From positions 830,217 to 894,216 of the forward strand of contig JBAXRQ010000001.1 in NCBI GenBank assembly GCA_037131105.1: a stretch of 64,000 bases of DNA, written 5' to 3'. This stretch comes from a bacterium. GTDB taxonomy: Bacteria; Patescibacteriota; UBA1384; CAILIB01. The notes beneath the pieces are model-generated. The model was not told the origin of the DNA. It worked only from the letters and a program-made list of their open reading frames with translations, and ran no database searches. This document shows positions 45,470 through 64,000 of this stretch, one piece after another (positions within the stretch are counted from its first letter, which is position 1; every line of letters begins with the position of its first letter). The position numbers and the translations under genes were made by a program.

Positions 45470-45729
45470 GTTGATTCCCCTGTCTTCCTCTGTAATCCTC
45501 TCTTGCGAGTCGGTGTCTGGAAGATTTTCTAAAAGTTCATGTCCCGATGAGCGGCCTGGATTTCTCCTCCCCTCTCATCGTGACGGCAGCATTGTAGCAC
45601 TGAAAACCTATTTCGTCAAGTACTTAGTCGATAAATACGAATTATCTAAAAATCATTAACAGATCGCGATATGGATACTTTCAGGTATATATGCTATAGT
45701 TCTACTATATCGACGAAATTTTAAACGAT

Positions 45730-46491: not shown

Positions 46492-46503
46492 CAATGCTAA
46501 AGC

Positions 46504-46536
46504 AAAAACCGCACTACCCGAAGGTCGTGCGGTTTT
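46504..46536. terminator. Bidirectional hairpin terminator (copy 2)
   Basis: Same 33-nt hairpin as 43784..43816, placed between convergent genes. Confidence 0.55.
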
Positions 46537-46578
46537 GGACTCCTGCCACTCTAGAACACTTCTCACCAACCTATAGCC

Positions 46579-46977: not shown

Positions 46978-47127
46978 GCTAGCACCCGCTTTTCAAAGGA
47001 TCACCTCAGGTCTCCCCTCAGTGTCGGGAGCATCCTAGCACAATTATTCATAATTGTCAATAACTAAGACTTTTTATATAAGATATATATTGAATATTAT
47101 TATAATATCGTCTATTATATAGACTAT

Positions 47128-47889
47128 ATGGATAAAGAATCCCTCCTCTCCGAGATCGGCCTCAGTGACAAAGAGACCAAGACCTACCTGGCCATTCTTG
47201 AGCTGGGCAGCAGCACCATCAAGCCCATCGCCCTGCGCTCAGGCATCAAGCGCACCTCCATCTATAACTTCATTGACCGCCTGGTTGAGCTGGGCCTCAT
47301 CACCCAGACCGTAGTACGAGGCCGCACCCATTACCAAGCCCTTCCTCCTTCGCACCTGGCCGACCTGCAGAGAGAGCGCCTACACCGGGTAGAATCAATA
47401 CTGCCGGAGCTTACCAGCCTGTTTAACCTGAACTCCTCCAAGCCCCGCATGCACTACTATGAGGGCCCCGAGCAGATGAAGAATATCGTCCGAGAAGAGC
47501 TCTCCTGCACCAAGGAAGCCCTCTACATCTGGCCCAGCGCCGAAAGCACCGAGATGATCGGCGGGAAGCGGTTCATGACCGACATCGACAAGCAGCGCAT
47601 AGAGCGCGGAGTACGCATTCGTACCATTCGCATGCACGACCAGACCGAGCATCTCTTTGAGACGTCAGCCCACGGCACCGCCTTACTTCGGGAAGTACGG
47701 TTCGCACCTGAGAATGAGAACTATAAGATGGGAATGGGAATCTACGACACTGGCAATGTCAGCTTCTTCAGCTCAAAGGAGGAGGGCTTCGGCATCCTTA
47801 TCGAGAGTAAGGAGCTCAGCGCCATGCTGCGAAGCCTGTTCGAACTGCTTTGGCAGGTGTCCACCCCCGCCAAGCCAGGACAGGGGTAG
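47128..47889 (+). CDS. TrmB-family transcriptional regulator (paralog 2)
   Basis: 253 aa, the same length and architecture as 45730..46491. About 55-60% identical to it by eye. Confidence 0.65.
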   Translation: MDKESLLSEIGLSDKETKTYLAILELGSSTIKPIALRSGIKRTSIYNFIDRLVELGLITQTVVRGRTHYQALPPSHLADLQRERLHRVESILPELTSLFNLNSSKPRMHYYEGPEQMKNIVREELSCTKEALYIWPSAESTEMIGGKRFMTDIDKQRIERGVRIRTIRMHDQTEHLFETSAHGTALLREVRFAPENENYKMGMGIYDTGNVSFFSSKEEGFGILIESKELSAMLRSLFELLWQVSTPAKPGQG

Positions 47890-47948
47890 GCTAAAACCCT
47901 TACTTTTTTAAGCTGGTTATTGTATAGTGATTCCACAAAAGCACTCCC

Positions 47949-48242
47949 ATGAACAAAGCCCTTTCCCTCACCTTCAGCCTCCCCCTTTCCATCTTCAAGG
48001 AAGACGGCGTGTTCGTTGCGCATACGCCGGCACTAGACATCTCAACCTGCGGTGACAGCGTAGAAGAGGCAAAGAAAAGCTTTGAGGAGCTAGTGGTACT
48101 GTTCATTCAAGAACTGGAAAGAAAAGGCACCACCGACGAAGTCCTCACCTCTATGGGCTGGGTCAAGGCCAACAAGGTCTGGGCACCGCCCGTTGAAGTG
48201 CACCACGAGATGCAGACTTTCAGCGTCCCTGTGCCGGCGTAA
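47949..48242 (+). CDS. hicB: HicB-like antitoxin (UPF0150)
   Basis: FVAHTPALDISTCGDSVEEAKKSFEELV matches the HicB N-domain consensus. Confidence 0.65.
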   Translation: MNKALSLTFSLPLSIFKEDGVFVAHTPALDISTCGDSVEEAKKSFEELVVLFIQELERKGTTDEVLTSMGWVKANKVWAPPVEVHHEMQTFSVPVPA

Positions 48243-48481
48243 TGTCCTCACGGCTCACCCCGATAAACGTTCTCAGGTTTGAGAAGTTCCTTGCTTCAGT
48301 TGGCTGCACCTTCGTAAGACAGGCCGGCAGCCACCGAGTCTTTGAGAAGGCAGGGCTTGCCAGGCCGGTTATCGTTCCCCGCCACTGCGCAGAGCTCCCT
48401 CCTTTTATCATTCGAAATAACCTCAGGACGCTAGGAATCAGCCTCGAGGAATATCAGAAGGCCATCAGGAAACTAAAATAG
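48242..48481 (+). CDS. hicA: HicA-like mRNA-interferase toxin
   Basis: 79 aa with the YcfA/HicA motif (GSHRVF). Shares 1 nt with the hicB stop. Confidence 0.65.
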   Translation: MSSRLTPINVLRFEKFLASVGCTFVRQAGSHRVFEKAGLARPVIVPRHCAELPPFIIRNNLRTLGISLEEYQKAIRKLK

Positions 48482-48506
48482 CCCGCTGCATGCGGGCTAT
48501 TTTAGT
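48479..48506 (+). terminator. Rho-independent terminator after hicA
   Basis: TAGCCCGC-tgca-GCGGGCTA followed by TTTTAG. Confidence 0.6.
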
Positions 48507-48980
48507 AATTAAAAAGAGCGGTTCACATTTCTACACGTGGATCAAATGTTTTTTAAATCCTGTGTGTGATACCGCTCTTTTTCAGCACAGACACGTTCCC
48601 GATGTTTCCAAGCGAGACATTACGTCTGACTTAGAATGGTTGCCATCTGGCTGTTGTGTCTTGCTCACCTGCTCTATAAAGGTACAAAATGTCTTGACTC
48701 TCTTTCTGTATTTCTCAGCAGGTCTCACAAGCACTTCACGCCGTTTCTCTTCTCTATCTCTTCCTACTCATCTCGTGTCGAGGAACCTTGTAATATCATC
48801 CCTCAACAAAGCTATTATACGTTTTGTAGGGCTTCCCGTCAATGACCTGGGGCCCCTTTCTAACCTGTAGATGCCCTAAAAACACTGCTGTAGCCGCTTT
48901 TTCAAATATTTCCTGGCTCCGCTGTAATATGCCCTACTTTTTCTACCAGAGTAGCTTTATTAGAGCCCTCGAGGGTGCTG

Positions 48981-51665
48981 CTATTCATTACTGGGGAAGG
49001 CCTGGTTAGCCAATGTCTCAAAGCGTCCAAACTGTAACCGGGCCAGCAACTTGGCATCCCCAGTCGGGCCGTTACGGTGCTTCCTCACCATCACTTCCAT
49101 GAGGTTGTTCTGCTCGTCCTTGTTATAGTAGTCGTCGCGATACAGGAACATCACCACGTCAGCGTCCTGCTCAATCGAATTGTGGACGACGATGTCATTG
49201 GCAACAAAGTTATGAGTTCCGGGAACTGTTGCGTCAAACACTTCTTCTACTGCCAGCGGAGTAATACTAGTAATTTCATCCCAATACAGATCGGAGTCAG
49301 CCAAGACCCCAAGATAACGACTACCGACTATCTGTGCAATTCGTCCTAGCCGCTCCCTGCTCACTCCGCTCTTAAACAAGGCTGATCCGGCGTAGGACAT
49401 TCCCATACTTGCCTGTACGGCTCTCCAGCTCAGCCCTGACGCCACTTTGGCCGGGATGATCAGCTGTTCCCAGATTGAAAGGTCGAGGGTATCGGTATTA
49501 GGATTGCCTTTTAAGCCAGCAAGCAACTCCTTGCACTGGCTAACGTTCTCTCCCCTGCGGCCATGACAGCCAACAGCGGCGAGAAATATTTCCTGGTTTG
49601 CCTTGCCTTGCACTTCTACATGATAACTTGGACGAAACGTCTTAGCTCCCTTGACCTGGGGAACCTGACGAAGGGTAGCCTGCATTCCCACCCGTAATAA
49701 TAGATGCTGCACCTGTTCCGCTAGAATCGGGCTAGTAGTAGCATAGTATATCGAGACCTTGTCCCTGGCTACGGACAGACATCCGTCAGTTGCCCACAAG
49801 TGATGCAGGAAGAGGGCTACCTGGGAATTTGAACAGCTGAAGAGACTGGCCGGCAGCTTTTTCTCATAGGAACGCGCCAATCCCAACCCCTCAGATTCCA
49901 ACCACTTTAGAAACGGATGCTTCTTACCTCTGGCATTACGATACGGACTAGGAAGATACAGATGATACCAGCTCTTCTGAGCAACCTGACGAGGCTTAAT
50001 CCCGTAAAGTATTGCAGTGGCATAGGCTACCGCTTCGATATTAGCTGGGTCATTACTCGTGTAATGCACCGGCTGGTGAGATACGTAGCACCCATCCCCC
50101 ACCATATGGGCCAGGAATGTCAGCTGTTCATCGCTATAAGAGGTGTTATCGGCAAGATTGCTAGGGAACTGACGTGGCAGGGCTAGTTTCTCGCCAATCT
50201 TAAGATTATCGAGGGATTGCCATTCAGTATACGTCTTGAACTTATGGTTAGCAGAGGCTTTGATCGTCCTACCGGAGCGGAACTTCAGCTCATATGTCTG
50301 CTTATAACCACTGGAGAATACTTTGGAAGCCGTCTTACGAACAATCTTATACTCCTCATCCATGCTCCACACCGGCACGTTAGTCTGACCTACCAGATCT
50401 TTGATCATTACGCGCTCACCAGTATCAGCTCTCTGGATAAGGGTATCGCCGGTCAAACAGCCACTTTCTCTTAGGTCCGACAGCAGCGGCCGCTTGTCCG
50501 GGCGCGACTCCACCGCACGGGAGAGCTGCGACAGGGCGATCACCGGACAGTTGATCTCTCGGGCCAGGGCCTTTAACGAGCGGGAGATTTCCGAGACTTC
50601 CTGTACACGGTTGTCGCTATTGCCTTTCGCGGTTCCCTCCATGAGCTGCAGGTAGTCCAATACTATGAGGTCAAGACCGTACTCAGCCTGCAGACGTCGA
50701 GCCTTGGCGCGAACCTCCATGATATTGGCCGAAGGGGTATCGTCGATGAACAGGTTGGCTTCGGCAAGTATTCCGTAGGCCTCGTTCAGGTTACGGAAGT
50801 CCTCGTCATTCAGCTTGCCGTTACGCAGCTTCCAGCTGTCGATCTGGCCAATAGAGGAAATGAGACGATCCACCAGCTGCTCCTTGGACATTTCCAGGGA
50901 GAAGATGCCCACCGACTTCTTCTGTTGCACGGCCACGTTCTGGGCGATCTGCAGGGCGAAGGCCGTTTTTCCCATCGAAGGACGGGCGGCCAGGATGATC
51001 AGGTCAGACTGCTGCAGGCCACCCAGGATATTGTCTATGTGCTTGTAGCCGGTCGAAAGGCCGCGCATAGTCCCATCCTGCTTGGACAAGGCATCCAGCC
51101 GCTCGAAGCTGTCGGCCAGGATGCTGCGGACCGGGATGAAGTTCTGCTTGAGGAAGCGCTGGGTGACGGCAAACAAGGCCTGCTCGGCCTGGTCCAGAAT
51201 GACGCTTGACGGCTCGTCCTCACGGAAGCCCAGCTCGCTGATCGAGCCGGCCGCGGAGATAAGGCGGCGCAGCATGGCCTTCTCCCGGACGATCTGGGCG
51301 TAATGCTGGACATTGGTGGCAGAGGCCACTGAGCTCACCAGGCTGGAAAGCTTGGCCGGGCCCCCTATCTGGTCCAGCTTCTTCACCCGGGCCAGCTCGT
51401 CGGCCACCGTCACCAGGTCGATGGGCACCCGCTTCTCTGAGAGAACCACCATGGCCTCGTAGATCGCCGCGTGGTCAGGGCGGTAGAAGTCGACGGCAGA
51501 CAGTATGTCGATGACCTTCAACATCGCCTCCACATCGAGAAGCAAGGCCCCGATAGTGGAGACCTCGGCGTCGATGTTCTGCGGGGGCATCCGGCCGGCC
51601 ACCTGGTGAGGGGTCAGCGACGGGGCCTCCTGCTGGTAGTTCTGACGAGAACCAGTGCGGGCCAT
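48981..51665 (-). CDS. dnaB: Replicative DNA helicase DnaB interrupted by an intein
   Basis: 894 aa. Exteins carry the DnaB motifs (ARPSMGKT; DLRESG|SIEQDAD). The insert lies at the canonical DnaB intein site. Confidence 0.9.
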   Translation of the reverse strand: MARTGSRQNYQQEAPSLTPHQVAGRMPPQNIDAEVSTIGALLLDVEAMLKVIDILSAVDFYRPDHAAIYEAMVVLSEKRVPIDLVTVADELARVKKLDQIGGPAKLSSLVSSVASATNVQHYAQIVREKAMLRRLISAAGSISELGFREDEPSSVILDQAEQALFAVTQRFLKQNFIPVRSILADSFERLDALSKQDGTMRGLSTGYKHIDNILGGLQQSDLIILAARPSMGKTAFALQIAQNVAVQQKKSVGIFSLEMSKEQLVDRLISSIGQIDSWKLRNGKLNDEDFRNLNEAYGILAEANLFIDDTPSANIMEVRAKARRLQAEYGLDLIVLDYLQLMEGTAKGNSDNRVQEVSEISRSLKALAREINCPVIALSQLSRAVESRPDKRPLLSDLRESGCLTGDTLIQRADTGERVMIKDLVGQTNVPVWSMDEEYKIVRKTASKVFSSGYKQTYELKFRSGRTIKASANHKFKTYTEWQSLDNLKIGEKLALPRQFPSNLADNTSYSDEQLTFLAHMVGDGCYVSHQPVHYTSNDPANIEAVAYATAILYGIKPRQVAQKSWYHLYLPSPYRNARGKKHPFLKWLESEGLGLARSYEKKLPASLFSCSNSQVALFLHHLWATDGCLSVARDKVSIYYATTSPILAEQVQHLLLRVGMQATLRQVPQVKGAKTFRPSYHVEVQGKANQEIFLAAVGCHGRRGENVSQCKELLAGLKGNPNTDTLDLSIWEQLIIPAKVASGLSWRAVQASMGMSYAGSALFKSGVSRERLGRIAQIVGSRYLGVLADSDLYWDEITSITPLAVEEVFDATVPGTHNFVANDIVVHNSIEQDADVVMFLYRDDYYNKDEQNNLMEVMVRKHRNGPTGDAKLLARLQFGRFETLANQAFPSNE
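49179..50459 (-). mobile_element. DnaB intein (427 aa) with LAGLIDADG homing-endonuclease domain
   Basis: Begins with Cys (CLTGDTLI) and ends ...VVHN before the +1 Ser. Two LAGLIDADG-like blocks (LAHMVGDGCY, LHHLWATDGC). Coordinates come from the ORF track and are ±2 nt. Confidence 0.8.
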
Positions 51666-52727: not shown

Positions 52728-54041
52728 TTAGGGGGTCAGCCGGTTCACACCGCGGTGCAGGTAGGTCACTTCCCTGATATTCTCAGTGTTGAACATCTTC
52801 ATCATCATGCGGACCGGTCCGATTCCGGCGCCACCGTGAGGTGGGCAGCCGTACTTGAAGAAGTCGAGATAGGTGCCAATGGACGCCTCTGTCAGCCCCT
52901 TGTCCAGAGCCTGCTTCTTAAGAACCTCGTAGCGATGCTCACGCTGGGCACCGGTAGTGATCTCTACCCCGTTCCACATCAAGTCAAAGCCTCTAGTGAT
53001 GCCGGGCCGGTCCTCGTACCGCATGTGGTAGAAAGCGCGACTCTCGATAGGATACTCCGTAACGAATACGAACTCGTGGCCATGTTTCTCCATGATGACC
53101 TCGGAAAGCTTCTTCTCTTCCTCAGGGTTGAGGTCGCCGACTTTGTCGCTCTTGATGTCAAACGGCTTGAGCAGCTCCTTGGCCTCGGCCAGGGTTACCC
53201 GGGGAAACGGCAGCGTAGGCACCACCAGCTCGCGACCGAACAGCTCCTTGATCTTCTCCCCGTGCCGCTCCTTGATCGTAGTGAGCACAGAGGCGATCAT
53301 TCCTTCAAGGTTGGCAGCGATGTCCTCATGAGAGTCAATGAACGACATCTCGAAGTCATAGCCGGTGAACTCGGTGGCATGCCGGGTGGTGAATGAGGGC
53401 TCAGCCCGGAACACCGGCCCGACCTCAAATACCTTCTCAAAGCCGGAGGCCATAGCCATCTGCTTGTAGAACTGGGGAGACTGGGCCAGATAGGCCTTGC
53501 CGCCGAAGTAGTCGACGGTGAAGAGCTCAGCTCCGGACTCGCTCGGAGCGCTCATGAACTTGGGCGAGTGGATTTCCAAGAAGCCCTTTTCCAGGAAGTA
53601 CTTCATGAACGCCTCCTCAAAGGTGGTCCAGACCTGGAAGATTAGTAGGTTTTTGGGCTTCCTCAGGTCCAGCCAGCGGTAGTCCAGGCGCAGCGACTGG
53701 TCGGTCTCCCCTTCACCCTTCTCAACTACGGGAATAGGCAGCTCAGGGGCGGCGGCAGAGAGCACCTCGACGCTTTCAACCTGGATCTCAGCCCCGCCGG
53801 GAGCCTGGGGAGCGGCCACTGCCACACCCTCGACGACGATCACCGATTCCAAGGAGATATCCTCAGCAGCGGCAAAGACGGCCTCATGCTCCTTGCTGAC
53901 CACGCACTGGATGGTGCCAGTGACGTCGCGCAGGATAAGGAACTGGATCTTGCTCTGGCGGCGGGCGGTCTGCAAAAAGCCCATCAGGCGGACTTTCTCT
54001 CCAGGCTTGGAGCCGGCCTGGGCGGTATAGGTTCGTTCCAT
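52728..54041 (-). CDS. aspS: Aspartyl-tRNA synthetase, archaeal/eukaryal type (likely non-discriminating)
   Basis: 437-aa class II aaRS with an N-terminal OB and motif 3 (GGAGIGPVRMMM). Co-occurs with gatCAB. Confidence 0.75.
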   Translation of the reverse strand: MERTYTAQAGSKPGEKVRLMGFLQTARRQSKIQFLILRDVTGTIQCVVSKEHEAVFAAAEDISLESVIVVEGVAVAAPQAPGGAEIQVESVEVLSAAAPELPIPVVEKGEGETDQSLRLDYRWLDLRKPKNLLIFQVWTTFEEAFMKYFLEKGFLEIHSPKFMSAPSESGAELFTVDYFGGKAYLAQSPQFYKQMAMASGFEKVFEVGPVFRAEPSFTTRHATEFTGYDFEMSFIDSHEDIAANLEGMIASVLTTIKERHGEKIKELFGRELVVPTLPFPRVTLAEAKELLKPFDIKSDKVGDLNPEEEKKLSEVIMEKHGHEFVFVTEYPIESRAFYHMRYEDRPGITRGFDLMWNGVEITTGAQREHRYEVLKKQALDKGLTEASIGTYLDFFKYGCPPHGGAGIGPVRMMMKMFNTENIREVTYLHRGVNRLTP

Positions 54042-54065
54042 AAAGGTGGGATTAGCGAGACTAGC

Positions 54066-54182
54066 GCGTTTGGATGCATTTCAAGGAAGGATTGAGTATT
54101 TGACCGAGGCGTACTCGCTGGTACGTTGAGGGAAAAACGGAAATCCTGACGAAGAAAGGCGCCAAACGCGTAGGACCGGGGA
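54066..54182 (+). repeat. Copy B of the conserved structured element
   Basis: Aligns with 12889..13000 at roughly 70% identity with conserved blocks. The hairpin GGCGUAC/GUACGUU needs two G·U wobbles on the plus strand. Confidence 0.5.
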
Positions 54183-54554
54183 AATAAAAATGCCCTCGCA
54201 CAATTACTCGAAAGTAATCATGTAAGGGCGACGTTAATCGCGGTGCCACCTTACTTCACTCCTGGCGGAGCCTTGTTTACGCTGTAACGGGCGCTCCCGA
54301 GGGGGTCTAGTATCCGCAGGAGCGGAGTTCTTCCCCTGGCTCAGCGGTGTCAGCCGCCTCAATGCCTATGCAAAGAGTATGGCAGAACCTGGAAAGGAGG
54401 GCAAGTGAGCTGGATTACAAACGTTTACAGCCCTGCCAAAGACCGCTATACTCATCCCAATGACCTCATACTCCTCTTTTAGCTTTTGCTGGCAGTCCCA
54501 CCTCCTTCTTCAGAAGCGAGCCCTGTTTTAGTACCAGTCTAAACCAGAAGACAG

Positions 54555-54585
54555 CGCCCGCTCCTGAAGCGGGTGTTTTGTTTTC
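54555..54585 (+). terminator. Rho-independent terminator closing an ORF-free ~500-nt interval
   Basis: CGCCCGC-tcctgaa-GCGGGTG stem followed by TTTTGTTTT. Confidence 0.55.
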
Positions 54586-54612
54586 GGCAAGGCACATCTT
54601 GGAATTTGAAAG

Positions 54613-55410
54613 GTGGATCGCATGAAACGCGCATTCGCGCCTAGCCTTCGAGGCTTACTAGATACGACAAGTAGTAAAATGCTGGCAGAGACGGCACCAT
54701 GGGTCCGACACGGACTAGAGCGCAGGCTGGACAGCGGCATTTTGAGGCTAGTCTCGGTATTCTCACCGGACTATTCCCGAGCAGCCGATCGGATTACCTG
54801 CAGTACACGAGTGAATGACGGACTCCCCTATGGCGCCCAGACACATCTAAATCTGGTAGCAGAAATGAGGGAGACCCTCGCCCAGTACGGGATTGACCTG
54901 GAATACAGCATTACCCTGACTGACGGAGACGTAGAATTTCCCAGGGTAATGCACCAGGTGGCCGACGGTGACGGTGAGCAGTTCCTGGATAACTGCCAGC
55001 AGAGCTGCCATGCCTTGGGCGAGGAAGCAGAGAGACTGGGTCTGAGGGTAACGATCTGTGGACGCCACAGCGTCATATTTCCTACCTGGTACAAGGTCTA
55101 CGACAAGTTGGTGTCGGAGCTTGGCAGACAGGTGGAGGCCGACCCCAGCCTCTCGGCCCGACTTGGCTGCTTCGCAAGCCGCAGGCTAAGTCTCTATAGG
55201 GACATGGGGGCCTGGGACCTCAGCGTAGGATGCTCGCAGGAAATGCTGATTAGGCAATGGGCCCAGTGCATGACCTGGGGCGAATGCTCAAGTCGGGACA
55301 TCGGGGCTGACATAGTGACGCTTGGCCACGCCACCCCTGTGCTGGACATGCTGAATCATCCCCTGGTCCGCAAGGGAAGGGAACGCATCCCTTTGCTAAG
55401 GATCAGATAA
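54613..55410 (+). CDS. Hypothetical protein
   Basis: 265-aa ORF preceded by GAAAGGTGGA. No recognisable family. Confidence 0.35.
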   Translation: MDRMKRAFAPSLRGLLDTTSSKMLAETAPWVRHGLERRLDSGILRLVSVFSPDYSRAADRITCSTRVNDGLPYGAQTHLNLVAEMRETLAQYGIDLEYSITLTDGDVEFPRVMHQVADGDGEQFLDNCQQSCHALGEEAERLGLRVTICGRHSVIFPTWYKVYDKLVSELGRQVEADPSLSARLGCFASRRLSLYRDMGAWDLSVGCSQEMLIRQWAQCMTWGECSSRDIGADIVTLGHATPVLDMLNHPLVRKGRERIPLLRIR

Positions 55411-55521
55411 CGAATCGTGTATGTGCACCATCCCCGCCCCGCCATTTCCAAGGAAGTGGCGGGGATGTTTTTTGGCTTACGAGAAGGGGAAAATGTGGTA
55501 CGTTGGTATAAATTCTCTATC

Positions 55522-56301
55522 ATGTCCACCTCTAAAGAACATACTCCCGGTGAAAAAATACGCGAGCTCCGTAAGGAGAGAGCTCTTTCTATTGAGGCAC
55601 TGGCCAATGAAGCGGGCATAACAGCGGTGGCACTAAGTAATATCGAGACAAAACAAGCACATCCACAGCGCAACACCCTTCTAAAGCTGATAAGGTGCTT
55701 GGAAAATGTACTGTCACTTTTACCAAGTATCAGAAGAAGCCTGGTGTACTCCTATGGTTATACCGACGTCTACGACGCCCCAACCCCTCCTGAAATAACC
55801 ACGGCGATAACTGCCTGGGAACTCCAGTTCAAGAACACCTCCTTCCCCGCCTATGTCATCGATATGACGATGAAAATTCACACGGCAAACCGTGCCATGC
55901 TAGGTCTCATGGACGAATCTGGCCAAGCTCGCACAGACCTCTGGGTATACGACCTAATTTTCTCCCCACCCCTTAAAAAGGGGCTACGGTTAGAAGGCAC
56001 CTATCAACTAACCTATAACTTGGTGGCATACATCTGGTTTGATCATCAGCCCTATTTTCGAGAATCCTGGTGGCAGGAAAGCCTTCTTAAAGGCCGTAAG
56101 AAGTACCCTCTTTTCGGAGAACTAATCGATGGCTTCTCCAGTGGTACACTCCCATTGCCGGAACTTGAGACCATGGAACCAGTCACCTTCACACTTGCTG
56201 ACGGAAGCAAGCTCACTTATGGCATACTCTCGGCAAATGTAGTTGAAGATCCACGGTTTAGAAGTATCCAATTCATCCCTATGGGCCACGAAAAGATATA
56301 G
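55522..56301 (+). CDS. MmyB-like transcriptional regulator (XRE HTH + MmyB-like C-domain), paralog 1
   Basis: HTH_XRE (GEKIRELRKERALSIEALANEAGITAVALSNIE) and a C-domain with KYPLFGEL. The track ORF starts at 55417; I prefer the internal Met. Confidence 0.6.
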   Translation: MSTSKEHTPGEKIRELRKERALSIEALANEAGITAVALSNIETKQAHPQRNTLLKLIRCLENVLSLLPSIRRSLVYSYGYTDVYDAPTPPEITTAITAWELQFKNTSFPAYVIDMTMKIHTANRAMLGLMDESGQARTDLWVYDLIFSPPLKKGLRLEGTYQLTYNLVAYIWFDHQPYFRESWWQESLLKGRKKYPLFGELIDGFSSGTLPLPELETMEPVTFTLADGSKLTYGILSANVVEDPRFRSIQFIPMGHEKI

Positions 56302-56377
56302 TGGACTTTATGGACGCTATCGTTAGCTGATGGGAGGATTGTTGTAAGGCTCATGCAACATTAGAAATCTTCTCGCC

Positions 56378-56764
56378 ATGATGAGAGACCACCTCACCAC
56401 CATCCAAGACCTTAAGGACCTTACCCAGAGGTTTAAAAAGGAGCGAAACTGGGGCGCCAACCACACCCCAAAGAATCTGGCCGTTTCCATCGCCATCGAA
56501 GGAGCCGAGCTAATGGAGCACTTCCAATGGGAGGATGTGATCAGACCTGACTCAAGACTCGAAATAAAACAGGAACTAGCCGATGTGGTGATTTACTGTC
56601 TATTTTTTGCACAGGCAAGCAGGATTGATTTAGCAAAAGCGATTGAAGAAAAGATGGCTCATAACGCTCGTAAGTATCCTGTTGAGCTTTTTAAGGGAGA
56701 GGGTGGAACAAATGAGGATTATTACAGAATAAAACGCGGATATCGCCAGAAACAACATGTGTAG
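56378..56764 (+). CDS. MazG-like nucleotide pyrophosphohydrolase
   Basis: EExxE-type helical NTP-PPase core (IEGAELMEHF...ELADVVIY). Confidence 0.65.
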   Translation: MMRDHLTTIQDLKDLTQRFKKERNWGANHTPKNLAVSIAIEGAELMEHFQWEDVIRPDSRLEIKQELADVVIYCLFFAQASRIDLAKAIEEKMAHNARKYPVELFKGEGGTNEDYYRIKRGYRQKQHV

Positions 56765-56796
56765 CTTCCTGGCTCGACTACTGCCAATGTGGTACG

Positions 56797-57621
56797 TTGG
56801 AAAAAACTTACCCAGATATGGCAGTAGCCCTGTTCCTCACATCAGGAGAAAAGATACGCGAGCTCCGTAAGGAACGCGGCCTTTCTATTGAGGCACTGGC
56901 CAATGAAGCGGGCATAACAGCGGTGGCACTAAGTAATATCGAGCTGAAGTCAGCCGCTCCGCAGCGCTCAACCATACTCAAGCTTCTTGACTGCCTCGAC
57001 TCAACACTTCCCATACCCGTGGAGAAACGTCGCGAGATTACCGATGCCTTTGGCTACATAGATATACCTGGCGTCCCCAACCAGCACGATATCGACAAAG
57101 CAGTACAGGCATGGCAAAAGCCATTCAAAAACACACCCTATCCAGCCTATATTCTTGACCGCGTTCAGCGCATCCATGACTGGAACGATCAAATGCTGGC
57201 CTTCATCGGTGAGGACATACAAGACCTGAAGGGCAGGACCATATTCGACCTGCTATTCGACGGGCGTTCCCGCGGCGTGGTGAATCTGGTCAATGAAGAG
57301 GAAGTAGTCACAAAGATGGTCAGGCACATGCGCAAGGAGTACAGGCCCTATATGGATGAGGAATGGTGCAAGCAATGCCTGGCAGATGCCCGGGCAAAGT
57401 ACCCTCTCTTTGGCGAGCTGTTTGACACTCTCCCCGACGAAGGCTCTCCCGCCCTTGACCTAAGGGCTACCGGCCCGATCATTCTCCGGGACAAGGAAGG
57501 CCACACCCTTCATTTTCAAATAGTAGGTATCGACCTCATAAGCGACCCCCGCTTCGGCGTGGTGCAGTACATCCCCCTGGATAAGGAGACTGCCCAGATC
57601 CTCACCAACCTCTTCAGCTAA
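56797..57621 (+). CDS. MmyB-like transcriptional regulator, paralog 2
   Basis: Same architecture as 55522..56301. Shares an identical ~64-nt HTH-coding tract with it. Confidence 0.6.
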   Translation: MEKTYPDMAVALFLTSGEKIRELRKERGLSIEALANEAGITAVALSNIELKSAAPQRSTILKLLDCLDSTLPIPVEKRREITDAFGYIDIPGVPNQHDIDKAVQAWQKPFKNTPYPAYILDRVQRIHDWNDQMLAFIGEDIQDLKGRTIFDLLFDGRSRGVVNLVNEEEVVTKMVRHMRKEYRPYMDEEWCKQCLADARAKYPLFGELFDTLPDEGSPALDLRATGPIILRDKEGHTLHFQIVGIDLISDPRFGVVQYIPLDKETAQILTNLFS

Positions 57622-57754
57622 ACGCGGAACGATTCCTAACGGCTATATTGACATTTCCCAGGTTACGTGCTACTATGCATCCGCCCATTAAACCTGAGTG
57701 AAGTAGATCGCAGGCGCCACCATGGCGCCAGATCAGATTTGAAAGGACAGAAAA

Positions 57755-58726
57755 GTGAGACTTGCAACTTGCAGTCTAATGCTCGCGCTGTTTCTGATGG
57801 CGAATGTCGCCCAGTCACAGCAGATCGACCCGTCGTTCCCCCTTTTGGGAAAGACGTACGGACCGGCCGGGATCTATATTCCGGACGCAGTGGGGATTTC
57901 AAACACCTCTCTGAACCCAGCCCGGCAGATGTCAATCACCGACATCTCTGCGAATAACCAGGTTGTTGAAGGCGATTTTGGTCGACTCAGCCTGGCCAAC
58001 AGCAACGCCGACTGGGAAATCGGCAATTACAGCTTCGTCAGCAAAGACCGTCGGGCAGTGGGACGCATTTCCTGGAACCACTTCACGGTGGGCCACGGGA
58101 TAATACCCGCGACAGATCCGGCCGAGATCGCCATGCGCGGAGACGCCTGGGAGCTGATAGGCGCATACCGCGTCAATAAGCACCTCGACGTTGGCGGCGC
58201 GATAGTTCCCGAGGACGCCACCCACTCCAGTCTGCAGCTCCAGGGTCAGACCCTGGCTTCAGGAGGCAGCAGGTCGCAGCGTCAGGGCCGAGTAGGCGCC
58301 TACTACCATGCTGGCAAGCTGGGTCTGGGTTACGAAGCAGGCTGGGAACGAGGTGTCGTTAGTAGCAGCATTCTTGGCAACGCACCGGTCAGCTCCGGAT
58401 ATAACCAGGATCACACCACCTACGGTGCCTCCTGGAGCCCGAAGCTGGGAACGACGGCGTTCTATAACCGCCAACGTTTCAACCTCAAGAATGAAGCGCT
58501 GGGCCTCGTGACCAAGACGGACTATTGGGGCGTCCAGCAGGCGCTCAGCCGCAAGGTAATCGCCCAGATTGCCCGCTCGGACAAGGCCACCGCACTTTCA
58601 GCAACCTGGTTGCCGGACGACCGCTATGGCCTGAACGTTTCATATACCAACAGGGCGTTCAGCACCTCGGAAGCAGCTTATGGCAAGGGCAACCTTACAT
58701 TCGTGAGCCTGTGGAAGAGCTTCTGA
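57755..58726 (+). CDS. Secreted Gly/Ser/Tyr-rich beta-barrel-like (porin-like) protein ending in Phe
   Basis: Signal peptide (ANVAQS|QQ). Amphipathic beta-strand-like composition. C-terminal ...TFVSLWKSF. Confidence 0.4.
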   Translation: MRLATCSLMLALFLMANVAQSQQIDPSFPLLGKTYGPAGIYIPDAVGISNTSLNPARQMSITDISANNQVVEGDFGRLSLANSNADWEIGNYSFVSKDRRAVGRISWNHFTVGHGIIPATDPAEIAMRGDAWELIGAYRVNKHLDVGGAIVPEDATHSSLQLQGQTLASGGSRSQRQGRVGAYYHAGKLGLGYEAGWERGVVSSSILGNAPVSSGYNQDHTTYGASWSPKLGTTAFYNRQRFNLKNEALGLVTKTDYWGVQQALSRKVIAQIARSDKATALSATWLPDDRYGLNVSYTNRAFSTSEAAYGKGNLTFVSLWKSF

Positions 58727-58870
58727 ACACACCAACCAAAGACAGAACGGATAAGGAGGGTCCGGAAGGGACGAGGCATCTGCCCCGTCCCTTTGACGTT
58801 TTAGCCTTAAAAACAACGTCCTCGGATAACCGATAATTTTAATAATTTCGTAATTATTATTACAACAATT

Positions 58871-58907
58871 TAACCTGATTGACAGGTTAAATAAACTATG
58901 CTACTAT
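58871..58907 (+). promoter_or_regulatory. Consensus sigma70 promoter (TTGACA-17-TACTAT) overlapped by palindrome TAACCTG-N5-CAGGTTA
   Basis: -35 at 58879..58884 and -10 at 58902..58907. The inverted repeat at 58871..58889 covers the -35. AAGGAGG RBS, then the GTG start at 58938. Confidence 0.55.
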
Positions 58908-58937
58908 CTACGCAACTTTGACAAGGAGGCACATCCC

Positions 58938-59564
58938 GTGAAGACGTTACTGGAAACAGACAACGGGATGTGCGTGGTTCAAGCCACCACAGCTCCCGAA
59001 GTCGAAGAACTGATCAGGCTTTTCGAAAAGATCGCCGAAGAGCAACACTGGCAGCCAGGGGACCAGCTACGCGCCTACCCCGAGTCCTCTATTCACTTCG
59101 GACTTATGGCCGGCACAAGTTTTATCGGCGGCCTACAGCTCGTTCTGGGAGGAAACAGTAAGGAAGGTATGCCCTGCCTCACCGTATGGCCAGAACTTGA
59201 CCTGAGATACCAAACCGATGTTGCTGACATTGCCTTGCTTGCTCTCGATGAAAAACATCGCGGGCAAAACGAGCTCTTCTGGCCACTCTGCATAGAAATG
59301 TGGAGATACTGTGAACGGGCAGGAATCACTCGGCTGATGGTTGAGGCAACACGTGAGAAGCAAGTGCTGTACAGGCGGTTCGGATGGCCCCTCAAGGCTG
59401 CCGGCGAAGTCCGACTCCATTGGGGAGAACCCTGCCAGCCCTGTTGGATGACCACAGCAGAAATCAATACAGAAATGGCGACAAAAAGTTCGCGAGGGAG
59501 CCTAAAATATGCCACCATCTTTTCCCTGATGCACCGCATCAGGGACTCTGACGAACGACCCTAG
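58938..59564 (+). CDS. GNAT-fold acyltransferase, autoinducer-synthase/N-acyl-amino-acid-synthase-like
   Basis: 208 aa with a LuxI/FeeM-like sequence pattern (IRLFEKIAEEQHW ... RLMVEATREKQVLYRRFGW). Family assignment is tentative. Confidence 0.45.
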   Translation: MKTLLETDNGMCVVQATTAPEVEELIRLFEKIAEEQHWQPGDQLRAYPESSIHFGLMAGTSFIGGLQLVLGGNSKEGMPCLTVWPELDLRYQTDVADIALLALDEKHRGQNELFWPLCIEMWRYCERAGITRLMVEATREKQVLYRRFGWPLKAAGEVRLHWGEPCQPCWMTTAEINTEMATKSSRGSLKYATIFSLMHRIRDSDERP

Positions 59565-59582
59565 CAAGTCGTTCGTTTTTGG
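59551..59582 (+). terminator. Rho-independent terminator
   Basis: ACGAACGAC-cctagcaa-GTCGTTCGT followed by TTTTGGTTT. Overlaps the stop codon. Confidence 0.6.
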
Positions 59583-59635
59583 TTTACGATAATAGTGCCT
59601 AGTTTACTCCCCCTAATCCGAAACGAGGTATCCCT

Positions 59636-60481
59636 ATGGCAAAGAATGTCTCCAGAATCCTGAGTACCGCTGTAAGTCCGTACGACGAGTACTGCACGGG
59701 TTTTGGCATGCTTCCAGAAAGCACGTACATCACCACTCCTCTTATCGCAACCGGCGTCGCAGACATTGAATGCGCCCACGGCGGCTCAGACATACTAGAC
59801 AAGATTGTTTCCTTCGACCGTGCCGAAGGTGAATACGCCAATATCACTCAGACCAACATGGTCACCGTATCCTCATTCAACGGCATAAACGGCGCCATTC
59901 TTGGCTACGATTTTCTCAAGCAGAACATTCGCCCCTATCATCTTGTCGATCCTGAGAAGTATCCAAATGTCTATGACGCTGAGCCCCTCTTTAAGGCAAC
60001 CCAGGCGCTCTATGGCACCATAAAGGAAAAGCACTTCCCCATTGCCCCAGGCCAGCATATCCTTTGCGCCTATAAGAGCCTCTACAAGAACGGCCCCTGC
60101 ATGATGTACGGCGCCCTTGCCATTGCTATCGCCAAGGACCGTGAGCACAACGCCGATCTTTACATGGAGGATCACGGAACAGTCCTCGCAACCCATAGCC
60201 GAGAGGCAAATCTGGAGCAGCAAACCACCATTATCGAAAGCCTGCTGCTTTCAGTAAAGCGTATTTCTGAAAACCTGAACGTGGAGTATGAAAAAATCTT
60301 CATTGGCTTCAAGTGTAAGAACGTTCAGTCTGGCCAGGTTGGCTGTGTGATTACGGCCGCCCCCTATATTCATCTTGCCAAGAATGCAATCCCTAAAGGG
60401 GATATTCCAGCGCTTGAACATATGAGTCTTTCTGACTGGCAAAGCCAGGTCAGTGGCTCATATATGAACCAACCCGCCTGA
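59636..60481 (+). CDS. hdcA: Pyruvoyl-dependent histidine decarboxylase proenzyme homolog (HdcA family)
   Basis: Block-wise match to Lactobacillus 30a HdcA as I recall it (IVSFDRAE, NMVTVSSFNG serinolysis site at Ser79-Ser80, ILGYDFL, ITAAPYIHL). Confidence 0.75.
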   Translation: MAKNVSRILSTAVSPYDEYCTGFGMLPESTYITTPLIATGVADIECAHGGSDILDKIVSFDRAEGEYANITQTNMVTVSSFNGINGAILGYDFLKQNIRPYHLVDPEKYPNVYDAEPLFKATQALYGTIKEKHFPIAPGQHILCAYKSLYKNGPCMMYGALAIAIAKDREHNADLYMEDHGTVLATHSREANLEQQTTIIESLLLSVKRISENLNVEYEKIFIGFKCKNVQSGQVGCVITAAPYIHLAKNAIPKGDIPALEHMSLSDWQSQVSGSYMNQPA

Positions 60482-60492
60482 CACACTAAGGT

Positions 60493-62700
60493 ATGGCCTA
60501 TCTCATCACAGGCCTCTATTGCTTCTGCCTAGCCTTTCTAGTGGCTTCAGCGCTATTTATCTATTTCAAAAACTCGAAGTCTTGGCTGAACCGCTATTTC
60601 CTGCTCTTAAGTGTCTCAATATTCGCATGGCTACTCACCCTCTACTTTTTTGATCGGCAGGCAGATTCATCCCTATTAACTCTCCTGGGCCGCGCCAACT
60701 TTACTTCAGCCGCCTTCATCGTCCTCTTTAATTATCTTTTCACTCCCCAGGTAGTAGGAGAACGCTCAAAGTGGACATGGCTGCTTGTGGCAGAGACCGT
60801 CATCCTTGCGGGCCTTACACAGTTTACAGGACTTATTGACCATAGTGAGCACCTAAAGGATGGCCAGCACATCACCCAGTTTGGTCCTCTTTTTCCATTC
60901 TATATCGTCCATATCGTCGTATACGTCCTCGTGGCGCTCTACCTTACCTTTTTCGCCTACAGGAAGGTCAAGGCAGCCGTTCGTAGCCAGCTCAACATCA
61001 TCGGATTCGGTGTGTTTCTCATGGCAGGCATAGCCATCTTCACCAATATCATTCTCCCCTACGGATATAACTTTTTTGACTTTCAAGAGGTAGGAGCACT
61101 TTCAACCACCTTCTTCCTCCTTGCAATAGCGTACGCCATTAGCGCCCATCACCTGTTTGATATCAGAGTAATCATCAAGAGAACGGTAATCTACACCGGT
61201 CTCCTGATCTTTGCCCTGCTGACATACAGCATGGTCATCTTCTTCTTTACCAACCTGTTCGGCGGCAATGGAAGCGCCTTTGACACCCGCAACTTCCTGG
61301 TAAACCTCCTCGCCGCCGGCCTCATCGCCGTAGGCTACGACCCACTGCGCCGCACCCTGGAGGACAAGACCGACTCCTTCCTCTTCAAGAAGGAATACGA
61401 GGAGCAGGCCGTACTGAACGAACTGGGCCGCAAGCTAAACGACGTAGTCGCCCTGGACGAGGCGCTTGACCTGATGATGCAGACCATTGTGAAGGTCTTC
61501 CACCTTCACCACGCTGTCACCTTTGTCTTCCAGCCGGCTGAAAACAGCGAGGTGGCCATCAAGCGGATCAAGCAGATCGGCTACACCAGCATGAACCACG
61601 TCTACCTGAACGACGACGACTTCACCATCAGCTACTTTAGTAGCCATCCTGGCGTCACCCGCCTCGACGTGCTGAACCAAGAGACTGAGGAGGAAAAGCG
61701 CCGTTTCAGCAATCTAAGCAATGGCAATACCAAGAGCCTTCCCAAAGAGACCAGTCACCTGATCCGCCAGCATGCTATCAAAGTAGCCGTCGCCAAGAAG
61801 CTTACTGATCTAAGCGCCGCCCTGGCTATTCCTCTTCACCTGAACCAGCAGCCCATCGGCCTTATCCTGCTTTCGGACAAACTCTCTGGCGACACCTTTT
61901 CCCCTGAGGACGTGACCCTTCTAGATACCATGGCTACCCAGGCCATCTCCTCCATCCAGAAGGCTAAGCTCTACGAAGGTGATCAGATGAAGAGCGAATT
62001 CGTCTCTATCGCCTCTCACGAGCTATTAACCCCGGTCTCTGCCATGGAAGGCTACCTCTCCATGATCTTGGATGAGAACATGGGTAAGGTGGACGCCCAG
62101 GCTCGCAACTATCTGGATAAGGTCTATATCTCTTCCAAGCGCCTCTCCGCCCTGGTTAAGGACCTGCTCTCCGTCTCACGTATCGAAGCTGGCCGCATGA
62201 AGATGGAACCCCAGTCACTAGACATGAATAAGCTTATCCATGACACCATGGACCAGTTGAAATTCCTGGCTGAGAACAAGAAGCTCAAGATGACCTACAA
62301 GGCTGCCGACAAGGCCCTACCCCCTGTCTGGGCTGACTCTGACCGTACCATGCAGGTATTGGTCAACCTGGTAAGCAATGCCATCAAGTACACTCCAAAG
62401 GGTGACATCGTCATTACCGCTAGCCACAGCCTGCAGCCCACCCCTCATGTCCAGGTTTCAGTCACTGATACCGGCCTCGGTATCAGCAAAGCTGCTCAAG
62501 CCCACCTCTTCGAGAAGTTCTACCGCGTCGCCACCCCGCAGACCACCGGTATCGTCGGCACCGGCCTAGGTCTCTATATCACCAAGTCGATCATTGAGAT
62601 GATGGGCGGGGTCATGACCCTGAAGAGTACCGAGGGCAAGGGCAGCACCTTCAGCTTTACCCTGCCCACCTTTAAGGTGGAGAAGTCCAGGCCAGAGTAA
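60493..62700 (+). CDS. 7TM-GAF sensor histidine kinase
   Basis: N-terminal 7 TM helices, a central GAF-like region, HisKA (SIASHELLTPVS) and HATPase_c (GTGLGLYITKSIIEMMGG). Confidence 0.85.
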   Translation: MAYLITGLYCFCLAFLVASALFIYFKNSKSWLNRYFLLLSVSIFAWLLTLYFFDRQADSSLLTLLGRANFTSAAFIVLFNYLFTPQVVGERSKWTWLLVAETVILAGLTQFTGLIDHSEHLKDGQHITQFGPLFPFYIVHIVVYVLVALYLTFFAYRKVKAAVRSQLNIIGFGVFLMAGIAIFTNIILPYGYNFFDFQEVGALSTTFFLLAIAYAISAHHLFDIRVIIKRTVIYTGLLIFALLTYSMVIFFFTNLFGGNGSAFDTRNFLVNLLAAGLIAVGYDPLRRTLEDKTDSFLFKKEYEEQAVLNELGRKLNDVVALDEALDLMMQTIVKVFHLHHAVTFVFQPAENSEVAIKRIKQIGYTSMNHVYLNDDDFTISYFSSHPGVTRLDVLNQETEEEKRRFSNLSNGNTKSLPKETSHLIRQHAIKVAVAKKLTDLSAALAIPLHLNQQPIGLILLSDKLSGDTFSPEDVTLLDTMATQAISSIQKAKLYEGDQMKSEFVSIASHELLTPVSAMEGYLSMILDENMGKVDAQARNYLDKVYISSKRLSALVKDLLSVSRIEAGRMKMEPQSLDMNKLIHDTMDQLKFLAENKKLKMTYKAADKALPPVWADSDRTMQVLVNLVSNAIKYTPKGDIVITASHSLQPTPHVQVSVTDTGLGISKAAQAHLFEKFYRVATPQTTGIVGTGLGLYITKSIIEMMGGVMTLKSTEGKGSTFSFTLPTFKVEKSRPE

Positions 62701-63266
62701 TTACGCCCCTACGGGGATATCCCGGGAACGCAGAAACTCGGCCGCTTCCTTACGGGTCACCGACTTATTGGCAGTCAGCCTGATAATAAAGGGCTCGACA
62801 CCGTCTATCGTGGCTAGTCGAAGGGCGTACAGTCCAGAGATCATTTCATTGGCCTACACCTCTTCCAGCCTGTCGGCAAGATCCTCTACTCTAGAGTATT
62901 GTTTGAAGGCCAGACCTGAATCAAAATCAAGATCACGGTCTTCGTTAATCTCAAGACTGAAGAGTTTCATAGCGCTGAAAGTGACCTGGTTTTCATAAGA
63001 GTGCCAACCCCAAGCGAATCAGTGGCCCATTCAAGGACCTCCCCTTCCGAAATCAGCTTGGGCAAATATACTACGAAGACGGTGTCCACATTGTCCATAG
63101 TGCCAATTTCAATTACCCCCTCAGATAGAGCCAGACTAGTCCGAGCCATACGCAAGGCCTCGAAAAGATCACCCTCGTAAGGCTTTTCAAGATAGAAGAT
63201 CGCACGCTTTTCTGTCTGAAAAAAGGTAGGCATGGTAAAAGTTACTTGAATAATAGCATAAGCCAA
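62701..63266 (-). pseudogene. Fragmented gene (three consecutive reading-frame pieces)
   Basis: A 99-aa ORF followed, across one frameshift and one stop, by 38-aa and 50-aa coding-like pieces. Confidence 0.3.
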
Positions 63267-63346
63267 GGATAGATAACAAGTAAGCTTTCCAGTTGCGAAA
63301 ATTTTTCCAAGAGCCTACTATGATCCTAGATTACTAACCTGCCCCT

Positions 63347-63739
63347 ATGCCTGCAGAAGGAACCACCATATTGCTAGCTGAAGACGACATCATCCTGGCC
63401 GAGCTCTACACTGAGCGCCTTAAGCAGGAGGGATTCAACGTATTGCACGCCGCTGACGGCGAGGCCGCCCTGAAGTTCGTCAAGGAGGACCATCCTGCCC
63501 TGGTTATCCTGGACATCATGATGCCGAAAATGAACGGACTCGATGTACTAAAGCAGATGAAAGAGGACCCTGCTACTAAGAACATCCCGATAATCGTGGT
63601 CACCGCCCTGGTTCAGGAGATCGAGAAGATCAGCAAGATGATGACCCAGGCCGACGCCTACATCGTGAAGTCCGAAGTACTACCCGGAGAGATCATTGAG
63701 CAGGTCAAGAAGCGCTTGGAGGCAGTCCAGGCCGCCTGA
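63347..63739 (+). CDS. Stand-alone response-regulator receiver (CheY-like)
   Basis: EDD...ILDIMMPKMNGLDV...K pattern with no output domain. Confidence 0.8.
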   Translation: MPAEGTTILLAEDDIILAELYTERLKQEGFNVLHAADGEAALKFVKEDHPALVILDIMMPKMNGLDVLKQMKEDPATKNIPIIVVTALVQEIEKISKMMTQADAYIVKSEVLPGEIIEQVKKRLEAVQAA

Positions 63740-63923
63740 GAGAGAACCTTAGGATCTCCATTCCAAACTGACTCGCCCTATTCCTGTCTGCAGATCATTC
63801 AGGGATCGTCCCCGTATCACACGATACACCTCCTCACCCTTCATGCTCTTCGACAAGGACTAAGGCGAGTCCGTTGGTAAAAGAGATCCCTAAGATCCTC
63901 TCCTACTCCCCAACGCGAAAGAG

Positions 63924-63955
63924 GGGCCTTCAGACACTTTCTGGAGGCCCTTTTT
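63924..63955 (+). terminator. Rho-independent terminator
   Basis: GGGCCTTCAGA-cactt-TCTGGAGGCCC followed by TTTTT. Confidence 0.5.
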
Positions 63956-64000
63956 GTGTGGCGCCGCGGGCGCATTTTAGGTATGATGCGGATATGACCT

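Follow-up and report, generated by a model that had tools for sequence, protein, structure and literature searches.

Nine genes, all on the plus strand, co-oriented and closely spaced, lie at positions 54613-63739 of the 64 kb stretch of contig JBAXRQ010000001.1 that was analysed here (the window). An earlier note on this DNA had read the 9 kb block as a producer and sensor module for an N-acylated biogenic amine, and a scan of the window proteins against Pfam and NCBIfam placed every gene that it listed at the claimed coordinates on the plus strand, with the domains claimed for it, the label porin-like for the product of 57755-58726 excepted. Our analysis centres on three consecutive genes of the block (58938-62700), which encode a FeeM-like N-acyltransferase, a pyruvoyl-dependent histidine-decarboxylase-family enzyme and a sensor histidine kinase with a seven-transmembrane (7TM) sensor domain. 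It is highly probable that these three genes form one conserved functional unit, to which we assign the receiver gene at 63347-63739 as a further member; the other genes of the block are regarded as local neighbours. The features of this module are as follows.

58869-58891, no strand: perfect inverted repeat TTTAACCTG-ATTGA-CAGGTTAAA with 9-bp arms and a 5-nt spacer, overlying the -35 element
58879-58907, plus strand: sigma-70-type promoter of the FeeM-like gene, TTGACA-17-TG-n-TACTAT (with TG extension)
58938-59564, plus strand: FeeM-like N-acyltransferase of the GNAT superfamily, 208 amino acids (aa), the proposed N-acylating enzyme (PF21926 at 26.2 bits, structural model)
59550-59577, plus strand: terminator-like hairpin with a 10-bp stem and an 8-nt loop, followed by a T-run, across the stop codon of the FeeM-like gene
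59636-60481, plus strand: pyruvoyl-dependent histidine-decarboxylase-family enzyme, 281 aa, the proposed histamine-forming step (PF02329)
60493-62700, plus strand: sensor histidine kinase, 735 aa, the proposed receptor (HisKA_7TM, GAF, HisKA, HATPase_c)
63347-63739, plus strand: stand-alone CheY-like receiver, the probable phosphoacceptor of the kinase (PF00072; alternative start 63371)

Module proteins and their control signals

The decarboxylase matched the HDC family (PF02329) at 165.4 bits (E 2e-48, cutoff 25) over residues 7-272 of its 281, which bears out the homology to HdcA that had been claimed, and it aligned with chains A and B of the Lactobacillus 30a enzyme (1hq6/1pya). Its self-cleavage site VS79/S80F was aligned with TAS81/S82F of that enzyme, and equivalents of I59, D63, E66, F83, K155 and E197 (Lactobacillus 30a numbering) were conserved; in the protein's own numbering the catalytic residues are D61, E64, K147 and E178, and cleavage falls at Ser79-Ser80. 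Residue conservation was judged in 24 close homologs and then in approximately 88 homologs from all fetched loci. Asp63, Glu66, Ser82 and Phe83 were invariant in both sets, Ser81 (one Thr) and Glu197 (three Gln) were nearly so, and Lys155 was almost invariant. A pseudo-enzyme, which had been raised as a possible objection, thus appears improbable from the retention of the Ser-Ser site and the catalytic residues throughout the family. In the 1PYA enzyme Glu197 and Lys155 are catalytic and Asp63 contacts the imidazole ring, and the conservation of Asp63 therefore makes histidine the most likely substrate. Judged by its sequence the enzyme is a member of a divergent subfamily of the HdcA family. 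Its close relatives comprised 53 cluster representatives in a collection of 5.8 billion proteins, all of them from metagenomes or metagenome-assembled genomes (MAGs), and the whole decarboxylase superfamily comprised 348 representatives among 1.84 billion proteins. A search of viral contigs yielded no relatives of this enzyme, and a phage-borne module was rejected as an explanation.

The open reading frame (ORF) starting at 58938 had been described as a GNAT/LuxI-like acyltransferase, a description that the predicted structure upholds at the level of the fold, with FeeM as the closest family. An AlphaFold2 model built from 35 homologs had a mean predicted local distance difference test score (pLDDT) of 94.9, and in a Foldseek search of the PDB ranks 1-6 were all chains of FeeM (2g0b), with TM-scores of 0.69-0.78 (0.75-0.78 when normalised to the target), followed by LasI, BjaI and TofI amid generic GNATs. 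FeeM 2g0b was also the only significant sequence match of the family profile in the PDB (E 0.003), and 33 of 41 homologs of the window protein carry a precomputed match to PF21926. The LuxI family of Pfam (PF00765, Autoind_synth) gave no match at E ≤ 0.1 in the Pfam and NCBIfam scans; with that match absent and a structural similarity of the second tier only, membership of the LuxI-type acyl-homoserine lactone synthases was ruled out. A pairing of an exosortase/PEP-CTERM acyltransferase with a PrsK-type kinase was likewise rejected, as the protein matched no exosortase-associated acyltransferase model in NCBIfam and the sensor half of the kinase weakly matched only the LIC10906-family membrane model.

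The kinase gene begins 12 nt past the decarboxylase gene. Its product matched HisKA_7TM (PF16927) at 41.7 bits (cutoff 28.6), GAF, HisKA (59.3 bits) and HATPase_c (95.4 bits), in agreement with the earlier description of a 7TM-GAF kinase directly 3′ of the decarboxylase, and carries approximately eight hydrophobic segments within residues 1-250 without any sizeable extracytoplasmic domain. The literature that we found on HisKA_7TM gives it as a sensor domain only and names no ligand, in a full-text search whose coverage left out most subscription journals. In one of the related loci described below (L067, 5195-6967), the kinase that neighbours the homolog of the decarboxylase carries a MASE6 membrane sensor in place of HisKA_7TM. 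The receiver, which had been predicted to stand alone, matched PF00072 at 83 bits and has no output domain.

The acyltransferase gene had been claimed to have its own consensus promoter with an operator-like palindrome, and both were found. A -35 element (ATTGAC) and an extended -10 element (TGCTA) align upstream of the FeeM-like genes of four related loci (L002, L004, L034 and L036), so that the acyltransferase gene has its own, conserved promoter. The palindrome at 58869-58891 is the sole exact match to its motif in the window, where chance would yield 0.18 matches to the relaxed pattern, and it is a candidate operator for a dimeric helix-turn-helix (HTH) regulator. An operator motif common to the loci was considered and rejected, since the palindromes upstream of FeeM-like genes differ from locus to locus and the window motif is not repeated within the window. 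The hairpin at the end of the acyltransferase gene has a predicted RNA fold of -14.1 kcal/mol (z = -2.8) and may possibly act as an attenuator between this gene and those for the decarboxylase and kinase; several relatives instead have overlapping genes for the acyltransferase and the decarboxylase.

Gene neighbourhoods of related decarboxylases

Contexts of related loci were fetched by exact protein look-up, from one genome per species (28 loci) and from metagenome contigs (54 loci), and neighbours were detected by searching all six-frame ORFs with hidden Markov models built for this analysis. Removal of near-identical copies left 76 loci, 45 of which had adequate flank (at least 0.9 kb upstream and at least 1.5 kb downstream). 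Beside the decarboxylase gene, a GNAT-type gene was present in 39 of these 45 loci, a 7TM kinase homolog in 37 and both in 36, and it is because of this conservation across loci that we regard the trio as more than a chance arrangement. The closest loci, at 40-58% identity, are from Armatimonadota (Abditibacteriia, Fimbriimonas and Chthonomonadales); more distant ones are from Patescibacteria (CPR3, Shapiro-, Sacchari-, Parcu-, Nealson- and Levyibacteria) and Actinomycetota/Geothermincolales, and further distant ones from MAGs that bear the label Gammaproteobacteria. In a Methanophagales locus the decarboxylase occurs with neither of its partners. In the relatives the genes overlap or are separated by short gaps, which indicates probable co-transcription. 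The co-conservation that the earlier note had proposed to check thus held for the trio, in several phyla, and not for the rest of the 9 kb block.

One relative (L002) is syntenic with the window from the genes for DnaB and tryptophanyl-tRNA synthetase (TrpRS) to dnaX, and has the acyltransferase, decarboxylase, kinase and receiver genes in a row between TrpRS and dnaX. The receiver ortholog directly follows the kinase in this locus (E 1e-63); single-domain receivers also follow the kinase in L011, L012 and L015, and the window's receiver itself recurs mainly in the syntenic relative. Approximately two-thirds of the FeeM-clade loci have a short XRE-type HTH gene divergent from the acyltransferase promoter. 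Many loci of this XRE-bearing clade lie amid mobile-element genes, such as those for a serine recombinase, an Mrr-type endonuclease, a PD-(D/E)XK/Cas4-like protein, DUF932 and a transposase in the flanks of L034-L037, and in this sub-clade the module appears to be mobile and to travel on integrative mobile elements. The module therefore usually seems to bring its own HTH regulator, for which the MmyB-like XRE proteins encoded upstream of the trio are the only candidates in the window.

The gene in the acyltransferase slot belongs to one of two families. Within the Armatimonadota-like clade that includes the window it is FeeM-like, adjoins the decarboxylase gene in all loci with flank, and usually lies upstream of it (downstream in L006, L050 and L052). 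In the distant loci (Patescibacteria, Actinomycetota, other MAGs and the "Gammaproteobacteria") the upstream gene belongs to an unrelated-looking family, here called C2, whose individual members are not recognised by Pfam. The C2 consensus matched the full GNAT domain (PF00583) with E 1.3e-3 and 19.5 bits (cutoff 20.7). A homolog search with the C2 profile returned four proteins only, and the resulting alignment was shallow; a model of one member, built from three sequences, had a pLDDT of 54.6, a GNAT-like order of secondary structures and GNATs as all 50 of its 50 best matches in the PDB, including arylalkylamine and polyamine N-acetyltransferases. We therefore assign C2 as a probable GNAT family, with moderate confidence. 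It was rejected as a FeeM homolog: hhalign aligned the motif-A region only, with 9% probability. The occurrence of two GNAT families in one slot means that an activity is conserved, not one particular gene, and the conserved combination of an N-acyltransferase, a pyruvoyl decarboxylase and a 7TM kinase argues for a common pathway.

The antiporter that usually accompanies HdcA had been reported missing from this block. The kinase is the sole ORF of the window with at least eight hydrophobic segments, and by this count no histidine/histamine antiporter is encoded in the 64 kb. Nor was an antiporter or other transporter recurrent beside the decarboxylase among the 76 loci, one of which had an adjoining polytopic membrane protein that was not a kinase.

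Several of these loci have features of their own. Some of the C2 proteins of L009 (7029-7970), L012 (6946-7935) and L015 (6853-7863) have a Cys-rich, zinc-ribbon-like insertion (CxxC...CxxC), and in L009 an XRE gene precedes two C2 paralogs in tandem. A conserved protein of approximately 100 aa with no Pfam match is encoded directly after the kinase in L005, L034-L036, L038, L039, L041, L042, L045 and L047 (for example L034 11115-11411), and in some loci of the mobile-element sub-clade another small conserved ORF comes next; the window has neither. In L035 (1-1410), a second gene of FeeM/Acetyltransf_5 type and a HisKA_7TM gene of the same contig are transcribed towards each other, with no decarboxylase, which hints that pairs of an acyltransferase and a 7TM sensor also exist without one. 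Decarboxylase homologs with neither GNAT nor 7TM kinase lie next to a thiamine-pyrophosphate (TPP)-dependent enzyme and an aldehyde dehydrogenase in L056 (565-4429), and next to a TPP enzyme and a methyltransferase in L061 (1057-2856), reflecting a different and probably metabolic use of the decarboxylase family.

Proposed pathway and alternative readings

The reading that we favour, to which we give somewhat less than an even chance, is that the module makes and senses an N-acyl-histamine-type signal. We infer the substrate, product, order of steps, kinase ligand, output and signal role as follows. The pyruvoyl enzyme would cleave itself at Ser79-Ser80 and convert L-histidine to histamine, and the FeeM-like GNAT would move an acyl group from acyl-ACP (acyl carrier protein) or acyl-CoA (coenzyme A) onto the free amine to give an N-acyl-histamine-type amide. 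With a decarboxylase as its genomic partner, the FeeM-like enzyme would have an amine, not an amino acid, as acceptor. In catalysis by pyruvoyl decarboxylases the free alpha-amino group of the substrate enters into a Schiff base; decarboxylation would thus have to come first, because an N-acylated amino acid is no substrate. The amide would then enter or cross the membrane and be detected by the seven-helix domain or the cytoplasmic GAF domain of the kinase, which would phosphorylate the single-domain receiver. Transcription of the acyltransferase gene would start from its own promoter and would probably be gated at the palindrome over the -35 element by a dimeric HTH regulator, here perhaps one of the two MmyB-like proteins and in most relatives the short divergent XRE protein.

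LuxN and CqsS are membrane sensors of a seven-helix type without a large extracytoplasmic domain, and bind lipophilic autoinducers. It is the resemblance of the kinase layout to LuxN and CqsS, together with the order of decarboxylation and then acylation, that leads us to favour a producer-plus-sensor module. As in LuxM/LuxN and CqsA/CqsS (LqsA/LqsS), one or more synthase genes are linked to a kinase whose sensor consists of membrane helices with no large periplasmic domain, the product is inferred to be small, lipophilic and acylated, the output would be a phosphorelay via a receiver, and genes for synthesis and for a polytopic kinase are inherited together, here in 36 of the 45 loci. Unlike LuxM and the pyridoxal-phosphate-dependent CqsA, the enzymes of the module are a pyruvoyl decarboxylase and a FeeM-like or C2 GNAT, and unlike LuxN and CqsS its sensor is HisKA_7TM plus GAF, with no match to LuxQ/LuxN-type models beyond the kinase core. 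By analogy, the module would work like the known pairs of synthase and receptor kinase, with other enzymes, a sensor from another family and, presumably, another chemistry. The acyltransferase shares its fold with FeeM and the N-acyl amino acid synthases, from which it differs in sequence (approximately 15% identity) and in having a decarboxylase as partner. The decarboxylase shares family, Ser-Ser site and catalytic residues with HdcA of Lactobacillus 30a and other Firmicutes; in place of an hdcP antiporter, hdcB or hisRS partner it has a constant neighbourhood of GNAT and 7TM kinase, and the module decarboxylases come from uncultivated phyla and not from lactic acid bacteria.

A number of observations weigh against the production and sensing of an N-acyl-histamine. 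The decarboxylase scored 157.3 bits against the TIGR00541 equivalog, far below the cutoff of 346.65, and specificity for histidine is read from residues only. The acyltransferase fell 0.8 bit under the PF21926 cutoff of 27, and the FeeM-type enzymes that have been characterised use amino acids and not amines as acceptors. C2 owes its place among the GNATs to a sub-threshold Pfam match and a low-confidence model. In the window the hairpin stands between the acyltransferase gene and those for the decarboxylase and kinase, and in 5 of the 45 loci the decarboxylase has neither partner. The receiver lacks an output domain, and in the mobile-element sub-clade the receiver is absent and no output domain is encoded; no autoinduction loop is visible. 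Finally, a kinase encoded in an operon can just as well control its neighbours upon an unrelated cue.

Of the alternatives, the one that survives best, which we nevertheless consider unlikely, is that histamine itself is sensed: the decarboxylase alone would be the synthase, the 7TM or GAF domain of the kinase would bind the free amine, and the GNAT would N-acetylate or acylate histamine and thereby end, detoxify or export the signal. The adjacency of decarboxylase and kinase is indeed the most constant link, being present also in L005, L022 and L062, though their upstream flank is cut, and the proteins closest to C2 in fold are amine N-acetyltransferases of the kind that inactivate biogenic amines. 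Set against this, the acyltransferase gene is present about as regularly as that for the kinase (39 against 37 loci) and is usually first in the operon with its own promoter, the window enzyme is closer to users of long-chain acyl-ACP (FeeM, LuxI) than to acetyltransferases, and the second FeeM-type gene of L035 stands beside a HisKA_7TM gene with no decarboxylase.

A module for pH or histidine homeostasis, in which the kinase would sense external histidine, pH or membrane stress and control the pathway while the GNAT neutralised the amine in the place of the antiporter, seems to us a little less likely again. The canonical pyruvoyl HdcA serves acid resistance, the catalytic residues are kept, and kinases are often encoded with the genes that they control. 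The lack of a recurrent antiporter or transporter, however, leaves no apparent proton-motive or pH benefit, the associated receivers mostly have no DNA-binding domain, and the module is found on contigs resembling mobile elements, together with an XRE regulator of its own, and in the tiny genomes of Patescibacteria.

It is more doubtful still that the N-acyl amide is a membrane lipid, a surfactant or an antagonistic metabolite, comparable with the long-chain N-acyl tyrosines of fee clusters or with aminolipids of the ornithine-lipid type, and that the 7TM kinase monitors the envelope or allows the producer to sense itself. Products of the FeeM family were initially discovered as antibacterial long-chain N-acyl amino acids, and the secreted 323-aa protein adjoins module genes both in the window and in L004, but a tight link to one sensor-kinase family across phyla would be unexpected of a structural lipid pathway, and tailoring, transport or resistance genes do not recur in the loci. 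Least probable is one dedicated island spanning the entire 54613-63739, with the MmyB-like pair, the MazG-like gene, the 265-aa ORF, the secreted protein and the receiver as parts, as the orientation and spacing of the genes, the promoter type that the 323-aa and FeeM-like genes share, the lipophilic ligands that MmyB-like regulators typically bind and a slightly lower G+C content would suggest, because the first four of these genes do not recur in the 76 loci (one weak XRE match aside), the secreted protein recurs once, L002 has the trio and receiver without the flanking genes, and the palindrome motif was not found upstream of other genes. The claim that decarboxylase, N-acyltransferase and 7TM kinase act as one unit is accordingly retained on the strength of the conserved trio, the GNAT fold and the catalytic residues, and its extension to the MmyB-type regulators and the whole block is given up.

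The reading of the trio as a source and sensor of an N-acyl-histamine-type signal would have consequences beyond this locus. The full-text literature searched contained no description linking a pyruvoyl histidine decarboxylase, a FeeM or GNAT gene and a 7TM kinase, nor any of bacterial synthesis of N-acyl or N-acetyl histamine, in keeping with the expectation that the combination had not been described as a system. N-acyl histamines are reported to have been detected in microbiome metabolomics, in a preprint on N-acyl lipids (10.1101/2024.10.31.621412). It is possible, and on balance rather unlikely, that the module represents a new chemistry of cell-cell signalling, in which autoinducers of N-acyl-histamine type are made by a pyruvoyl decarboxylase and a GNAT (FeeM-like or C2) and read by HisKA_7TM kinases in Armatimonadota, Patescibacteria/CPR (candidate phyla radiation) and Actinomycetota, in some cases on mobile elements that carry an XRE switch of their own. 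If so, the HisKA_7TM sensor domain would gain its first ligand class, and a bacterial signal would be seen to arise by a new biosynthetic route, in which an amino acid is decarboxylated and then N-acylated, tied to its own receptor kinase. Chemical communication would then extend to Armatimonadota and episymbiotic Patescibacteria, lineages in which signalling is almost undescribed, and to mobile elements. As the module consists of three small genes, it is directly testable by heterologous expression.

Neighbouring genes and other features of the window

Upstream of the trio, the block contains five further genes.

54613-55410, plus strand: 265-aa ORF with no Pfam or NCBIfam family match
55417-56301, plus strand: MmyB-like regulator with XRE-type HTH (HTH_3 and HTH_19 matches), probable start 55465
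56378-56764, plus strand: MazG-like gene (PF12643, 49.9 bits)
56797-57621, plus strand: MmyB-like regulator with XRE HTH and MLTR_LBD (PF17765), alternative start 56818
57755-58726, plus strand: secreted 323-aa protein whose N-terminus resembles a signal peptide and whose C-terminal residue is Phe

The MmyB-like family controls small-molecule biosynthetic genes. The protein of 56797-57621 scored 39.5 bits against HTH_3 and 40.5 bits against MLTR_LBD (cutoff 26.3), and that of 55417-56301 is its full-length paralog, with 42% identity over 250 residues that include the C-terminal domain; both XRE genes are therefore MmyB-like, as the earlier note had it, and the MazG-like gene was likewise recovered. 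Both proteins share the XRE HTH and PF17765-type architecture of MmyB-like regulators, whereas relatives of the module use a short divergent XRE protein without a ligand-binding domain. Counterparts of the MmyB-like pair, the MazG-like gene and the 265-aa ORF were not found in the 76 related loci, save a weak XRE match in one CPR3 locus (L009/L055), and the MmyB-like proteins are best regarded as window-specific candidate regulators outside the conserved module. Within the HTH-coding parts of the two genes, 140 nt (55549-55688 and 56845-56984) are 84% identical at the DNA level, against 42% protein identity overall, which suggests a recent duplication or gene conversion of this segment.

The secreted 323-aa protein, which the earlier note had called porin-like, matched no family in the Pfam and NCBIfam scans, which thus gave that label no support, and has a single homolog, encoded directly 3′ of the decarboxylase gene in L004 (E 3e-50). 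Its gene is preceded at 57648-57676 by a promoter of the same type as that of the FeeM-like gene. On this weak evidence it is possibly an accessory part of the module.

G+C content is 0.50-0.54 at 54000-64000 and at 44000-50000, compared with 0.55-0.58 over most of the window; the lower values fit a foreign origin of the block inserted between the gene for aspartyl-tRNA synthetase (AspRS) and the module, and are no proof of it. Rfam and tRNA scans of the region gave no matches. An anti-phage defence system was rejected as an explanation of the region, as PADLOC models matched generic HTH, receiver and ATPase domains only. Just 3′ of the receiver gene, at 63752-63889, lies an imperfect inverted repeat with 53-nt arms that are 72% complementary and 32 nt apart. 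The DnaB helicase gene of the window (48981-51665, minus strand, 894 aa) is split by an intein with a LAGLIDADG homing-endonuclease domain (Pfam DnaB, Intein_splicing and LAGLIDADG_3), and DnaB of the syntenic L002 has 467 aa and no intein. The window's own contig also encodes, 3′ of dnaX and approximately 2.2 kb past the window end (L033 16298-16938), a PhdYeFM-antitoxin/Fic pair and an MscL channel.

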